A DNA stretch of 64,000 nucleotides from a virus: IMG/VR virus record IMGVR_UViG_3300049020_000031, positions 32,001 through 96,000 of that record; one strand, 5' to 3'. Below, piece after piece: positions 3,525 to 46,945 of the stretch. Made by a program: the position numbers and the translations under genes. Numbering within the stretch: position 1 is the first letter of the stretch; each line of letters starts with the position of its first letter. The notes under the pieces were generated by a model. It saw only the letters and a list, made by a program, of their open reading frames with translations, had not been told where the DNA came from and ran no database searches.

Positions 3525-4862
3525 TCAACGTTTTTTCATTTGCTGTTCTGCCACACCGAACGCCGTATAGTCAAACTTTAGATCGACAGCTTGTTTTGAA
3601 TCAAGAGCATTTGTGACATCATAGATGAATCTAGATCTCATGGTGAGCATCAGGGAGTTGAGTTCGATTTCTTTAAATTCTGGCTCATGGGTCATCACAA
3701 CCAACAGATCACTATCGACCACACTGTCGTAAGGGTCGAAATATTCGATGCCACGACTATGGGTCATTTGAGCACCATTGGGATCGTAGTATCGAACTTC
3801 AAAATTTCTAGATGAAAACCATTGAGCAACTTTCATTGATGGTGACTCTCTGGTATCGGCAGAACCAGCTTTGAATCCCATCCCCCAGAAGGTAATGGTT
3901 TTGCCCTTGTTTCCGTTCTTCTCCAGAATCCGTTTCACTTCACTAATTATGTGATGTGCGGCATTGTTGTTGCTTGAAACTATTTGATTCACCATACTCT
4001 CATGCATTGCATTGTTGGCGATTTGTGACCCAAGGGCATGTACATCCTTGGGTAGACAATAACCACCAAAACCAGGACCATGTTTCAAATATTGATCTCC
4101 GATTCGTGGATCAATGGAAATTCCAGTCACGACATCACGAATGTCAGCATCGTAGTTTTCACACAGTTGTGCCAACTCATTCACCATAGCGATACGAGCT
4201 GCTAAAAAGGTGTTCGCAGCCAGCTTGGTTATGACAGCGGAATTGAAACTCATGGGGATGATTGGTGCCCCATTTGCCAGCACCTCGATGACATCGACTA
4301 CATGGGGTTCAAGTGAGTCAAGGGTGCTGGTGGTGGTCCCTACCACCAGCCTATGGGGATGGTTAGCATCATGTAGTGCCTTACCTTCCTGAAAGAATTC
4401 CGGGAGTACCACTAGGCTGGCGAATGTTTTCTCAGGCTCCTTTAGGATATTCTGAATCGTATCCACGGCCATGGTAGAACGAACGAATACATAATGTGGG
4501 GAAATTTCTGTTTCCTTGAGGCCATACCTACAGCTATTGAATACGGATGAGATGGCATAAGAATCAAGATGTGTGCGGACTGACTGTGGTGTACCAACAC
4601 AGATGAACACCAACATACTCTCGTCCATTTCTTCAGGCCAGAAATTATTTTTGTGATCTCTACAGATCTCCAGAGACCCGTCAGAGATAAGTTCTGAAAC
4701 CGCCTCCTTGACTCCAGGCTCATCGATGTGGCAGTCACCATTCAAGAGTTTGCTGATGACCGTTTTGTTCGTGTCAAACCCGATGACTTTGTATCCAGAT
4801 TTGGCGAGGGTGATAGCGGTCGCCAATCCTGAATAACCCAGACCAAACACAGCCGCTCTCAT
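3525..4862 (-). CDS. ugd: UDP-glucose/GDP-mannose 6-dehydrogenase
   Basis: GLGYSG Rossmann motif, ICVGTP, PEFFQEG, KLAANTFLA, catalytic GGYCLPKD, DTRESP. Confidence 0.9.
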   Translation of the reverse strand: MRAAVFGLGYSGLATAITLAKSGYKVIGFDTNKTVISKLLNGDCHIDEPGVKEAVSELISDGSLEICRDHKNNFWPEEMDESMLVFICVGTPQSVRTHLDSYAISSVFNSCRYGLKETEISPHYVFVRSTMAVDTIQNILKEPEKTFASLVVLPEFFQEGKALHDANHPHRLVVGTTTSTLDSLEPHVVDVIEVLANGAPIIPMSFNSAVITKLAANTFLAARIAMVNELAQLCENYDADIRDVVTGISIDPRIGDQYLKHGPGFGGYCLPKDVHALGSQIANNAMHESMVNQIVSSNNNAAHHIISEVKRILEKNGNKGKTITFWGMGFKAGSADTRESPSMKVAQWFSSRNFEVRYYDPNGAQMTHSRGIEYFDPYDSVVDSDLLVVMTHEPEFKEIELNSLMLTMRSRFIYDVTNALDSKQAVDLKFDYTAFGVAEQQMKKR

Positions 4863-5812
4863 TTATGATAGTCCTTATACCATTCCACGAAATTTTTCAA
4901 ACCTTCCGCCATCGAAGTTGTCTTGCAATAGCCGATTCTGGATTGTAACTTATCAACAGACGATCTGGTGATGGAAGATTCATATACTGGCAAATCTATT
5001 TCAATAATTTCTGGTTTCTTTCCCAGTATTTCACCAATCGTCATGATCATCGACTCGACGGAAATAGATCTGCCAGATCCCAGATTGTAGATTTCGTGCG
5101 TACCGGGAACTGCCTTATCCAAGATACCAACTACCATATCAACCAGATCATCCACATATGTGAAGTCCCGTCTAGTCATTATACCACGGAGTAGAACTGG
5201 CTTGTCTTCCATGATAGCCTTGGTGAATAGCCAATATGCCATATCAGGTCGCCCCCATGGTCCGTATGCTGTGAAAAACCGCATACCTACCATAGTCCCA
5301 CCATAACTTTGGTGATGCATGTCGGCCTGTTGTTCGTTCGTGAGTTTACTCAAAGCGTAATTGCTACTGGGGAAAGTTTGATCATGTTCTTTTACTGAGC
5401 TGGTACCCGCACCGTAAACACTTGAGCTACTGGCGTAGAAGATTCTTTCTACGCCATATTTCTGGCAGGCGTCAAGTACCGCTGCCGTCCCCACGACGTT
5501 TGTTTTATACGTTCTGGCTGGATCAACCATTGATGCCGTAACTCCAGGTTGAGCGGCTAGGTGAATTACGGTCTTGATATCGTTTTCCGAAAACAACCTA
5601 TTGAGGTAATCCTGATTCGTGATGTCAGCGTAGAAGAATTTTACCTTACCACCGGTCATCAAAGAATTGAGACGATCTCGTTTTAGCTGCGGTGCGTAAT
5701 AGTTGTTCAAACTATCGACAAGAACCAGGTCCTCACCCATTGCTAGAAGTCGCTCCGAGACTGCTCTACCGATGAAACCTGCCGCCCCAGTGATTAGAAT
5801 TTTACCGTTCAT
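4859..5812 (-). CDS. NAD-dependent epimerase, UDP-glucuronate 4-epimerase-like
   Basis: TGAAGFIG, HLAAQ, YASSSSVYG, YxxxK, RFFTAYGPWGRPDMA, RDFTYVDD. Confidence 0.88.
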   Translation of the reverse strand: MNGKILITGAAGFIGRAVSERLLAMGEDLVLVDSLNNYYAPQLKRDRLNSLMTGGKVKFFYADITNQDYLNRLFSENDIKTVIHLAAQPGVTASMVDPARTYKTNVVGTAAVLDACQKYGVERIFYASSSSVYGAGTSSVKEHDQTFPSSNYALSKLTNEQQADMHHQSYGGTMVGMRFFTAYGPWGRPDMAYWLFTKAIMEDKPVLLRGIMTRRDFTYVDDLVDMVVGILDKAVPGTHEIYNLGSGRSISVESMIMTIGEILGKKPEIIEIDLPVYESSITRSSVDKLQSRIGYCKTTSMAEGLKNFVEWYKDYHK

Positions 5813-5933
5813 TTTTATGCCATTAGTTACCTGGAATTGTACGTTTGGCGTCAATAAATCACAATAAACATCAGATATACCGGTTTAATCTTCGAGGAAA
5901 CTCCCGTAAATAAAGGAAACTTCATCGGGGATT

Positions 5934-7245: not shown

Positions 7246-7605
7246 TCAATCTAATGATCCATTACCACCAAACATCAACTTAAACTTGATGGCATCTGAG
7301 GAATCCAGAAACCATATAGTCTTCGTCACATCAAGTCGAGTATTGGTGGTGTGGGAGTACCATCTGATGATTTTGAATGGTTGACATTCACTTAGGAAAA
7401 CTAACACGTCCTCGGAAAAATCAATGATCATCATCAATTCTTTCAACGAATAAGTTCGTATCCAGGTGATAGTTTTTGGAGGGAGTTCACTCCAATCACC
7501 GTTGAAATTGAACTTGTTCTCTTCAGTGATGTGAACGCATGATGCGCCAACCAGTTGTGGGCGAATAAGGAAAAGAACTTCTTTGCAGATACGAATAATA
7601 TTCAT
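7246..7605 (-). CDS. FKL-motif family protein, probably leaderless
   Basis: WFLDSSDAIKFKLMF; TG-C-TATCAT-6nt-ATG. Confidence 0.65.
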   Translation of the reverse strand: MNIIRICKEVLFLIRPQLVGASCVHITEENKFNFNGDWSELPPKTITWIRTYSLKELMMIIDFSEDVLVFLSECQPFKIIRWYSHTTNTRLDVTKTIWFLDSSDAIKFKLMFGGNGSLD

Positions 7606-7635
7606 ATGTGCATGATAGCACCATTCCAAATAGGA

Positions 7636-7790
7636 GAGCCCCTAATGGCGTTAGGGGCTCAACGTAGCCTTCACAAAAGAGGGGGTAGCTGTCCCTCTTT
7701 GTCTCGCGTGCTACCGCGAGTTTGACACCTGCATCGCTATAACATAACGGTCCTAAGGTGAAACTTTTTGGTTATTGCTAACCTTCAATC
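7636..7790 (-). ncRNA. candidate structured small RNA (three hairpins, possible kissing loop, terminal hairpin)
   Basis: no listed ORF; TAAATA at 7791-7796 on the minus strand; stems 7726-7760, 7703-7720, 7673-7702 and 7636-7660. Confidence 0.6.
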
Positions 7791-7796
7791 TATTTA

Positions 7797-8213
7797 TTAT
7801 CCAATGTAGGTAATCTTGTCATAAACCGGCCCCTTGTCGTCACCACTGAATGCCAATTTGAAACAGATCAGATCATGCATTGAGATGAAATACAATGGAT
7901 AGACAATTGCGAAGCAATCCCTTGCGTGGCCGGATATCTTAATTTCTTCAGAGGACGAAGGCTTGACATCATACTGTTTTCCCATCTCATATCCCTGACA
8001 AGACTCAAGGAAATCATGTATTTCTGGTTTCCATCCATACTCCAATCCATATTCCAAATTCATACCGTTATGATATGAATTGAAAACTCGGTTGCCATTC
8101 TGATAATTGATGTAGTCGTGTTGATAGATGGGATAAAGATGACCAAACACTCTGGGAAGAAGGCGAAACAACCGTAGATGAATAGCTGCCTTGATCTCTA
8201 GGAATGTTTTCAT
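7797..8213 (-). CDS. FKL-motif family protein, probably leaderless
   Basis: YFISMHDLICFKLAF; TG-C-TATCAT-7nt-ATG. Confidence 0.65.
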   Translation of the reverse strand: MKTFLEIKAAIHLRLFRLLPRVFGHLYPIYQHDYINYQNGNRVFNSYHNGMNLEYGLEYGWKPEIHDFLESCQGYEMGKQYDVKPSSSEEIKISGHARDCFAIVYPLYFISMHDLICFKLAFSGDDKGPVYDKITYIG

Positions 8214-8278: not shown

Positions 8279-8665
8279 TTAATAAGGATCGTATGAATCA
8301 CGATCATCATATTGATCAGACTTGGAATCTGCATCTTCCCAAGCCTTCTCACCCAATTGATTCATCACCGCTGGGGGAACTGCATCCGTGATGTCTTCAC
8401 CAGTGGAAAGACGGAAGACTGAAAGGCTTTCCAGTTCCGGATATTCCGCTGGGTGACTGTCACCCGGATCTGCGGTAATCTTTGCTGGGCGATACTTTCC
8501 AGATATGGAATAGTTGATGCCCACATCAAACTCTTCCTCATAATCAGGATCATTGCCCGGATCTTTGAATGGGTTATCGATTGTCCAGTTAAAGTCGTAA
8601 CGTGCTGGAGCTTCAGAAAGACCTTGAATAAGGTCCATGCTTTCTCTTAGGGAAATTCTTTTCAT
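8279..8665 (-). CDS. acidic hypothetical protein, possible capsid-internal protein
   Basis: N-terminus MKRISLRES...LSEA; last gene of a late operon. Confidence 0.6.
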   Translation of the reverse strand: MKRISLRESMDLIQGLSEAPARYDFNWTIDNPFKDPGNDPDYEEEFDVGINYSISGKYRPAKITADPGDSHPAEYPELESLSVFRLSTGEDITDAVPPAVMNQLGEKAWEDADSKSDQYDDRDSYDPY

Positions 8666-9387
8666 TATGATACCGCAATGTTGAGGCCTGGTTCGCCCAT
8701 ACTAACACGTTCGCTCTTGTCGCCCACGATGCTATCGAAGACCAGTTTGAATGTGAGATGACCGTAATCACGATCATGGCTCAGATAATCCAAAGTGTAG
8801 CGACCGTTAGGTTGGAGACCCAAGTCTTGGATTTGTTTCCCCGTCAGAGAGGAACTATAGAGAGTGGTGGCCTTACCATCTTCACCTTCAGTGCTTCCAC
8901 CCATTCTGCGATGGAGCTTGGTGAATTGATCGGGACCAGTGCCGTAAACTTCGCCACCGAATGCATCCAAGTATTCAGCACCACAAAGAATCAACACTAC
9001 TTCACCACCCCTGCGAGTGATACGAACACCAGTCACACCGTGACTGAATTCGCTGTTGTCCTTGATGATCTGATTAGTGAATGCTGCATTGTAGTCGATA
9101 GTGGCCTTGCTTGCGCCTAGGGCTCTTTTATCGTGCTCCATGTGCTTATCAATCTGCGTTTGCACATTCCTAACTGCTTCATCAGCAGTTGTGCCCTGGC
9201 CAATTGGTGCATTGGGGTTACGGGGATGTGAACCCATAGCCTTGAATGTCTTCCCATCAACCTCTGGCTTCAGCTTTGCTTTGATGGTCCAAGCGCCGTA
9301 CTTTACTTCCTTGATTGGAATTTCAGGCTTTTTCTTTGGGGCTTCTTTGATTGCTCTAGGAGCATCAAACAATTCAAATAGTTTCAT
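8665..9387 (-). CDS. hypothetical protein, possible capsid-internal protein
   Basis: N-terminus MKLFELFDA...IKEA. Confidence 0.65.
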   Translation of the reverse strand: MKLFELFDAPRAIKEAPKKKPEIPIKEVKYGAWTIKAKLKPEVDGKTFKAMGSHPRNPNAPIGQGTTADEAVRNVQTQIDKHMEHDKRALGASKATIDYNAAFTNQIIKDNSEFSHGVTGVRITRRGGEVVLILCGAEYLDAFGGEVYGTGPDQFTKLHRRMGGSTEGEDGKATTLYSSSLTGKQIQDLGLQPNGRYTLDYLSHDRDYGHLTFKLVFDSIVGDKSERVSMGEPGLNIAVS

Positions 9388-46834: not shown

Positions 46835-46945
46835 AGTTTTCTCCTTATTAAGCGAGTTATTTTGGGACCACAAGGGCTCCCAGGTATGGCCTTAAAAGCG
46901 CCATACCGTATTTATACTGAATTGAACTGACTATCGCAATATTTT

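Follow-up and report, generated by a model that had tools for sequence, protein, structure and literature searches.

A putative phage small RNA family with complementarity to the helix 69/70 region of 23S rRNA

Small RNAs that work by base pairing are known from their action on mRNAs. To our knowledge, no natural RNA of a bacterium or phage is directed at a functional center of the ribosome, and our literature search found none. Among the closest described cases, Helicobacter pylori makes a cis-antisense RNA that pairs with the 23S-5S rRNA precursor, in a duplex that RNase III cleaves (Iost et al. 2019, PMC6582327), and in Haloferax volcanii the small guide RNA sR-h45 serves modification of helix 69 (H69; PMC7075261). 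A synthetic peptide nucleic acid (PNA) directed against H69 blocks translation and growth of Escherichia coli (Kulik 2017, as cited in PMC12828698), so this helix can be reached by an antisense oligomer. Among phages, the gp139/gp140 gap of Vibrio phage ICP1 encodes that phage's most abundant transcript, a non-coding RNA of ~800 nt (Barth et al. 2020, PMC7567579; PMC9040626). Here we describe a spacer in a 64,000-nt stretch of viral DNA (the window; bases 32001 to 96000 of the 141.5-kb IMG/VR virus record IMGVR_UViG_3300049020_000031), in which minus-strand positions 7626 to 7797 resemble a stand-alone small RNA gene of ~155 nt, running from a late promoter to an intrinsic terminator and carrying a segment antisense to 23S rRNA. 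Taken jointly, a gene of this kind and its pairing with 23S rRNA are slightly favored by the sequence evidence.

The plus strand of the window at 7740 to 7759 reads TAACATAACGGTCCTAAGGT, and in the E. coli rrlH gene ATAACGGTCCTAAGGT begins at 23S position 1916, with TAACT at 1911 to 1915. On the minus strand, 7744 to 7759 is antisense to 23S 1916 to 1931 at 16 of 16 contiguous positions, and 7740 to 7743 (GUUA) can pair with 1911 to 1914 if U1915 is skipped, giving 20 of 21 overall, as an initial annotation made from the letters of the window had proposed. We call this segment (7740 to 7759) the seed. The local duplex between the seed region and 23S 1906 to 1939 has a predicted energy of -35 kcal/mol (an unconstrained duplexfold run against the whole 23S rRNA gave meaningless long-range structure, and the local duplex was used). 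Nowhere in the 141.5-kb record is there an rRNA match longer than this 16-mer. By itself the 16-mer is not significant, and its significance comes only through family-wide conservation. We computed an expectation of ~0.14 such matches per window and ~0.30 per record, close to the roughly one-in-ten chance that the initial annotation had attached to it. A chance 16-mer in an ordinary structured spacer would be compatible with these expectations, but exactly these bases are conserved throughout the family described below, which refutes that explanation for practical purposes and leaves it almost no credence.

Other rRNA-like words occur in the record. Plus-strand positions 8772 to 8786, inside the minus-strand open reading frame (ORF) at 8665 to 9387 and 1 kb from the small RNA, form a 15-mer identical to E. 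coli 16S 15 to 29, the conserved 16S 5' end ("27F" primer region), to which the minus-strand mRNA would be antisense; a second 16S 15-mer (16S 57 to 71) lies outside the window, at record position 139298 on the minus strand. About 1.2 such 15-mers are expected per record, and their origin may be chance.

A 13-nt core of the seed, UUAGGACCGUUAU on the RNA strand (antisense to 23S 1916 to 1928), is present at more than 60 distinct phage or metagenome loci, which we collected with a pattern scan of IMG/VR using ATAACGGTCNTAAGG and extended with members from metagenome contigs. The core is invariant in the aligned relatives, and the window matches it at 13 of 13 positions, extended to 16 of 16 plus 4. 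The flanks of the loci, their hairpins, spacings, and neighbor genes are unrelated among members. On sequence comparison, these loci form a widespread and previously undescribed family of predicted phage RNAs whose constant bases are complementary to 23S rRNA. The initial annotation had set conservation of the seed core in homologs against the opposite outcome, in which homologs keep the structure and lose the complementarity. What we found is the former: the hairpins differ, and the complement of 23S 1916 to 1928, often together with that of 1930 to 1937, is kept.

Among the IMG/VR matches listed, the base at the N of ATAACGGTCNTAAGG was C in 53 cases, A in 28, T in 13, and G in 9. For the ~41 distinct N=C loci among these matches, 38 are intergenic, and the flanking ORFs nearly always lie opposite to the strand that carries the motif in the 23S sense. 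Conservation extends beyond the bases fixed by the search pattern. When only GTAGCGAA...ATAACGG is required, most family members continue with TCCTAA and a few with CCCTAA. When only the seed motif (motif 1) is required, a second motif (motif 2, at most one mismatch) lies within 110 nt in 9 of the ~41 IMG/VR loci listed, where ~4% would be expected by our calculation.

Motif 2, UUCGCUAC, is antisense to 23S 1930 to 1937, that is, to bases adjoining the seed target. It always sits in the stem-closed loop of a hairpin, and a script counted 26 distinct stems comprising 256 base pairs, 18 of them G.U (RNAalifold on a MAFFT alignment of family C gave no structure, the stems being misaligned). Within it, (U)UCGCUAC is invariant in two of the three arrangements that we distinguish, families A and C. 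Family A, which includes the window, ICP1, L002/L003, L241, L322, and L333, has a motif 1 hairpin, one or two middle hairpins, and a motif 2 loop. Family B has a 17-mer followed directly by a long terminator hairpin, which on the minus strand shows G.U pairs and GNRA loops, and it lacks motif 2. Family C is minimal: after motif 1 comes a small hairpin, into which the 3' part of the seed is often drawn, and then a U-tailed terminator with a UUCGCUAC loop. The bases 23S 1931 to 1937 are reached either by a short continuation of motif 1 with a bulge (L043 and L076 groups) or through a separate loop (families A and C). In several lineages the seed also reaches over the helix 69 loop as far as 1911, and there the base opposite U1915 is skipped (window, ICP1, and L241), G (L061), or A (L071 group). 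Because the lineages reach the same 23S bases by different arrangements, it is the target, and not the fold, that appears to be the constant. The initial annotation had labeled the complementary region H69 to H71; complementarity to 1911 to 1937 holds, and complementarity beyond those bases is not significant family-wide.

Some family A loci (L002, L003, L026, L029, L090, L097, L322, and L333; e.g., L003:2315-2398:-) carry two further conserved elements. One is a 7-nt loop, GGCUGCU, on covarying stems, complementary to 16S 520 to 526 (the 530 loop; 9 to 11 nt with flanks) or to 23S 1070 to 1076, and the other is a 3' motif, A(A/U)AGUGAGC, complementary to 23S 1099 to 1105. Both matches are too short to be significant alone, and the window RNA has neither element. 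One motif-scan match, at L233:3880-3990 on a marine metagenome contig, consists of tandem CCTAACGGT-like 9-mers and is unrelated to the family.

The constancy of these bases could also mean that they bind a partner other than rRNA (a host or phage protein or another RNA) and that their identity to 23S is incidental, and the seed is indeed partly structured in several lineages. We think this quite unlikely, given that a chance match of a 13- to 15-mer among ~9,000 rRNA positions has a probability of ~1e-4 to 1e-5 by our estimate and that the second conserved loop motif corresponds to the 8 nt immediately beside that target in the same rRNA. Nor is there a constant protein-gene neighbor among the loci whose neighbors were examined; the adjacent genes encode an HNH endonuclease, a RuvC-like resolvase, ribonucleotide reductase, large terminase, a virion structural protein, or an endolysin-like protein.

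Several features support the minus strand, antisense to 23S, as the RNA strand: the orientation of the flanking genes, better folding, the loops and terminators of relatives, and, in the window, a late box and a terminator. The RNA strand folds better in 37 of 44 relatives, with a mean gain of 9 kcal/mol, and it is this strand that carries the GNRA and UUCG loops and the U-tailed terminators. These observations agree with the minus transcript that the initial annotation had predicted from a promoter, and they disfavor the plus-strand H69 decoy that it had offered for the case of plus-strand expression. A functional plus strand would be a permuted H69-H70 mimic or decoy for an rRNA-modifying enzyme or a ribotoxin, or a Y RNA cargo with Ro60. 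Such a reading draws on the L003 type, which reads on that strand GGUAGCGAA-UUCCU-hairpin-CCUGCAC followed by the H69 3' strand and so resembles a permuted 23S 1916 to 1967, and on L008, L025, and L265, where a longer 23S-identical stretch runs in the direction of tRNA genes. We regard it as very unlikely, since gene orientation, the late box, U-tailed terminators, G.U pairs, and GNRA/UUCG loops all favor the minus strand, no sigma-70-type promoter was found on the plus strand at the locus, and two separate loops cannot imitate one continuous strand. The Y RNA variant was rejected as well: the 141.5-kb record (~33% complete by CheckV) contains no TROVE match, the locus has no YrlA match (the YrlA model finds only a distant subthreshold site in the record), and the predicted fold has no stable terminal stem.

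A different class is represented by L008 (2624-2638, -), L025, L265, and L075, with 22 to 25 nt of contiguous identity to 23S 1913 to 1937. In L008 and L265 this identity falls within or next to a tRNA gene or tRNA cluster, in tRNA orientation, and would be sense rather than antisense; L008, L025, and L265 were left out of the family.

The spacer in the window (7630 to 7796) lies between two minus-strand ORFs, 7797 to 8213 upstream and 7246 to 7629 downstream, and the putative RNA gene is present in a single copy on the strand of these genes. It opens with a T4-type late-promoter box, ATAAATA, at minus-strand positions 7791 to 7797, which overlaps the upstream ORF by one base (its first base closes the stop codon). 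T4-type late promoters follow the pattern TATAAATA. In the whole record ATAAATA occurs at 23 sites, 18 of them in the 12% of the DNA that is non-coding, and 17 sites lie no more than 80 nt upstream of a same-strand gene start, usually with a Shine-Dalgarno sequence and an ATG following. Because the sites concentrate in non-coding DNA upstream of same-strand gene starts, we read ATAAATA as a real promoter type in this phage, which would thus use T4-type late promoters. What follows the box at 7791 to 7797 is a folded RNA and a terminator and not an ORF. Another such late box stands on the minus strand at window position 46915, with an 8-bp hairpin and a second hairpin after it and no obvious Shine-Dalgarno sequence or ATG within the next 70 nt; this stretch might encode another late small RNA, or it might form a structured leader.

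The 159-nt RNA folds at a predicted -54.7 kcal/mol (z = -3.3; none of 200 shuffles was as stable) into a row of five hairpins without a stable terminal stem, all on the minus strand. A 5' hairpin of 5 bp with a GCAA loop (7770 to 7783) starts 7 nt past the late box and probably marks the 5' end of the RNA, if the start-site spacing of T4 late promoters applies here. Hairpin 1 (7726 to 7760), closed by CACCU/AGGUG, holds the seed, and the equivalent closing stems differ in sequence among relatives. Hairpin 2 (7703 to 7720) has 6 bp and the loop GUAGCA, which has the same sense as 23S 1930 to 1934 and is complementary to the loop of hairpin 3, so that the two loops might pair. Hairpin 3 (7676 to 7700) has 8 bp and a 9-nt loop, ACAGCUACC, containing GCUACC. 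This loop had been noted in the initial annotation as the complement of GGUAGC at 23S 1929 to 1934; GGTAGC is located there in rrlH, and by its sequence the loop is the window's version, a degenerate copy, of motif 2 (UUCGCUAC). The seed and the hairpin 3 loop overlap at 23S 1929 to 1931, which both cannot use simultaneously. A second copy of GCUAC lies in the linker before the terminator (7663 to 7669), and ICP1 likewise has a second GCUACC. Finally, a terminator-like hairpin of 10 bp, 6 of them G-C, with a U-containing tail (7626 to 7660) probably forms the 3' end.

This layout bears on another explanation, that the sequence is a cis-acting element of a 3' untranslated or intergenic region whose rRNA complementarity holds a terminating or recycled ribosome and so stabilizes the 3' end of the mRNA or aids re-initiation, in the manner of the termination upstream ribosomal binding site (TURBS) that tethers calicivirus mRNA to 18S rRNA. 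In many relatives the motif lies 7 to 20 nt past the stop codon of the upstream gene, in family B it directly precedes the terminator of that gene, and the ribosome recycling factor is known to act at helix 69. We nevertheless consider a cis element unlikely, if worth keeping in view, as the window RNA has a dedicated late box before it and a terminator after it, ahead of the next gene, and as terminators past the motif in relatives argue against re-initiation. A TURBS-type element was rejected for the window, where the next ORF starts more than 110 nt downstream, past the terminator. Some loci, moreover, lie between divergent genes, and the ICP1 RNA is far more abundant than its neighbors (PMC7567579).

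The closest relative of the window RNA is the 5' end of that gp139/gp140 gap in ICP1. A sensitive BLAST of the spacer gave one meaningful match, to Vibrio phage ICP1 (26 of 29 identical), and the match is present in 82 Vibrio phage records, ICP1-type among those listed. It lies in the ~1-kb ORF-free gp139/gp140 gap, ~25 nt downstream of the gp140 stop codon and on the gene strand, where the motif is marked by CCUUACGACCG. The first ~100 nt of the gap align with the window RNA: both have UUCACCUUA-GACCGUUAUGUUA, a hairpin region, and then (C)UCGCUACC, and both the ICP1 gap and the window RNA end at a minus-strand terminator. The two differ in length, ~800 nt for the ICP1 RNA versus ~155 nt for the window RNA. 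The rest of the ICP1 long non-coding RNA has 17 runs of at least 9 nt complementary to E. coli rRNAs, against 8.9 in shuffles, and the longest run is ordinary; overall, this complementarity does not clearly exceed that of shuffled sequence. The ICP1 papers (among them PMC7567579 and PMC9040626) make no mention of rRNA complementarity. Hi-GRIL-seq data also exist (10.1101/2022.04.08.487710), from libraries depleted of rRNA. The high abundance of the ICP1 RNA would fit a stoichiometric partner as plentiful as ribosomes.

The part of the ribosome that would be bound is well characterized. Positions 1916 to 1924 of 23S rRNA cover the 3' side of the loop of helix 69 plus the 3' strand of the stem. 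Helix 69 itself makes bridge B2a and is a contact site for tRNAs, release factors, and the recycling factor. The target stretch, GCCGTAACTATAACGGTCCTAAGGTAGCGAAATTCC, is the site of I-CeuI, a use that its conservation fits, and it is identical in 23S genes of many lineages caught by our scans (among them Acidobacteriota, Bacilli, Myxococcota, Acidimicrobiales, Verrucomicrobiales, Shigella, and Pantoea). A scan of 185,579 bacterial and archaeal species, one genome each, for motif 2 followed by motif 1 returned real 23S genes, which are caught because helix 68 contains GTAGCGAA, along with assembly artifacts and one small Verrucomicrobiia contig with the element. The two-motif element thus appears, from its distribution, to belong to phages and not to bacterial chromosomes. 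In some of the scanned 23S genes (L351, L353, L360, L373, and L386, from Acidobacteriota and Acidimicrobiales metagenome-assembled genomes, and L282), the sequence departs from 23S right after U1931 or G1933, which shows that the site is interrupted there by an insertion (intron or intervening sequence) and is a mobile-element hot spot.

Such a hot spot raises the further explanation of a DNA-level site, namely, a homing-endonuclease or recombination target resembling the I-CeuI/L1931 intron site. It would account for the interruption of several scanned 23S genes after 1931 or 1933 and for a family B locus arrangement in which an HNH endonuclease gene ends beside the motif, where identity to 23S stops. 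Most lineages, though, have no endonuclease neighbor, the identity covers only 13 to 17 bp, and the adjacent stems covary as RNA does, with G.U pairs and tetraloops. As the two-motif element was found outside rRNA genes in only one small contig among the 185,579 species genomes, we find a DNA-level role highly improbable.

We therefore lean toward a trans-acting phage small RNA that pairs with 23S 1911 to 1937 (H69/H70) in free or immature 50S subunits, a reading that the sequence comparisons make somewhat more credible than its opposite. The target is exposed in the free 50S subunit and unfolded in late assembly intermediates, in which helices 68 to 71 dock last (as seen by cryo-electron microscopy). 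Direct RNA-RNA pairing could occur where the 23S stretch is accessible, in a nascent or late-assembling 50S subunit or in a free one with protruding helix 69. The RNA would pair with 23S 1916 to 1928 (the 3' half of the H69 loop, the 3' stem strand, and the following junction), many members would also pair with 1930 to 1937 in helix 70 through their hairpin loop, and helix 69/70 would be unfolded or occluded as a result. In one outcome, 50S maturation or subunit joining might be held back; in another, the duplex of ~21 bp might be marked for a double-strand-specific nuclease, with cleavage by RNase III; in a third, the site might be protected from a ribotoxin. What comparative genomics shows is the sequence match and its conservation, the strand, the promoter and terminator, and the homology to the 5' end of the region of the ICP1 long non-coding RNA; the identity of 23S rRNA as the partner, the form of the ribosome that is bound, and the consequence of binding are all points that we infer. 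More tentatively, and at somewhat less than even likelihood in our view, many lytic phages, ICP1 included, might produce large amounts of an RNA that clamps 23S 1911 to 1937 with its two conserved modules and so controls free or maturing 50S subunits. Such a clamp could halt the production of new host ribosomes, govern subunit joining, or keep a host ribotoxin away from helix 69/70, and the 5' domain of the ICP1 long non-coding RNA would be its ribosome-binding module.

Several points weigh against pairing with 23S rRNA as proposed here. The mature 70S ribosome keeps the target paired within the H69 stem and hidden at the interface between the subunits, and in E. coli the base at U1915 is an m3-pseudouridine. 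The seed is itself partly paired inside hairpin 1 in the predicted fold, as the initial annotation had cautioned, and the motif 2 of the window is degenerate, keeping GCUAC(C) with UUC replaced (5 or 6 of 8 positions). In the ICP1 seed a C replaces the G opposite C1925, leaving 9 + 6 contiguous pairs, and the ICP1 motif has been placed on the DNA of the gap and not on a mapped RNA 5' end. The ICP1 closing stem also gives a counterexample on strand, with a single A.C that is a G.U on the other strand. With motifs 1 and 2 masked, additional complementarity to 23S 1932 to 1977 showed no enrichment (median rank, 0.43); this test included GUGCAGG versus 1961 to 1967 and AGGAA versus 1939 to 1943 (L003 type) and UGCAGGU versus 1960 to 1966 (window). 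Finally, any block on ribosomes falls on the phage's own translation too, which makes a benefit less obvious.

The record that holds the window is ~33% complete and has a GC content of 45%, with 155 of 218 gene proxies on the minus strand over the whole record (window coordinates -32000 to +109500). It contains no rRNA genes, and the window contains no tRNA genes. The run that holds most of the stretch is labeled as a soil metagenome and is probably the source sample of the assembly; contigs span the locus only in this run, and two runs with a small share miss the RNA. In the Logan contigs of the best DNA run there is a break between the seed and the 5' hairpin (one contig stops at 7758 and another begins at 7776), which the small inverted repeat probably caused through the assembly graph. 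The sequencing-run look-up listed no RNA run for the stretch. The two ORFs that flank the spacer have no Pfam or PHROG family and no IMG/VR relatives, and because of the latter no close syntenic homolog could be aligned. Two kilobases from the small RNA, the minus-strand gene at 4859 to 5854 encodes a predicted NAD-dependent nucleotide-sugar epimerase/dehydratase (Pfam Epimerase, E = 1e-56; PHROG nucleotide-sugar epimerase), which by its sequence is an auxiliary sugar-metabolism gene.

Searches for a described counterpart returned little. None of the 4227 models of Rfam 15, which include GOLLD, ROOL, and YrlA, matched the window at gathering score, with only noise at E > 7 in 7400 to 8000, and among ICP1 and 17 related loci Rfam found no family apart from tRNAs. 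A megablast of the locus against phage records gave no match, and BLAST of family A, B, and C representatives against isolated phages gave one spurious Klebsiella phage match only. In a full-text literature search, no account of a phage RNA with complementarity to 23S rRNA came up. If the proposed pairing is true, this would be the first case in the bacterial world of a natural regulator that acts in trans on rRNA, and binding to H69/70 would give phages a direct, RNA-level handle on host ribosomes and open a new chapter of host takeover. Evolution would also have arrived there at an antisense approach to a site of proven relevance to antibiotics. For ICP1, it supplies a first concrete, testable hypothesis for a most abundant transcript that has been unexplained since 2020. 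The window RNA itself is directly testable in E. coli because the target sequence is identical there.

Comparison with known regulatory RNAs places the candidate among familiar designs with an unfamiliar presumed target. Like small RNAs of the RybB and OmrA/B type, it is small, has its own promoter, carries a short conserved antisense segment in its 5' part, and ends in a terminator hairpin. It differs from them in that its presumed target is rRNA and not mRNA, in that its seed of 13 to 20 nt is nearly invariant across very different phage genomes, and in having a second antisense segment in a hairpin loop; as for the features of Hfq-type small RNAs, its terminator has a U-poor tail and its seed is partly paired. 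Archaeal and eukaryotic guide RNAs of the H/ACA and C/D types for helix 69 modifications share with it a bipartite complementarity to the H69 region of large-subunit rRNA. A guide RNA was rejected on direct reading of the window sequence, which lacks C (RUGAUGA) and D (CUGA) boxes, an ACA box, and a pseudouridylation pocket. Bacteria lack the partner proteins of H/ACA and C/D guide RNAs.

Closest in target, the anti-H69 PNA (Kulik et al. 2017, as cited in PMC12828698) addresses the same helix but is a short artificial oligomer supplied from outside the cell. The H. pylori antisense RNA is a natural bacterial RNA that acts on an rRNA precursor, and its cleavage by RNase III indicates one possible fate for a duplex with the phage RNA; it is, however, encoded by the host, acts in cis, and pairs with a leader, in contrast to the functional center of mature 23S rRNA proposed for the phage RNA. 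In its display of target-complementary bases in hairpin loops, the phage RNA resembles CopA/CopT and RNA I/RNA II, and by analogy this display suggests a loop-first (kissing) recognition followed by helix extension. CopA and RNA I are encoded in cis and are fully complementary to their targets, whereas the phage RNA would be encoded in trans and would recognize 23S rRNA through two short blocks.

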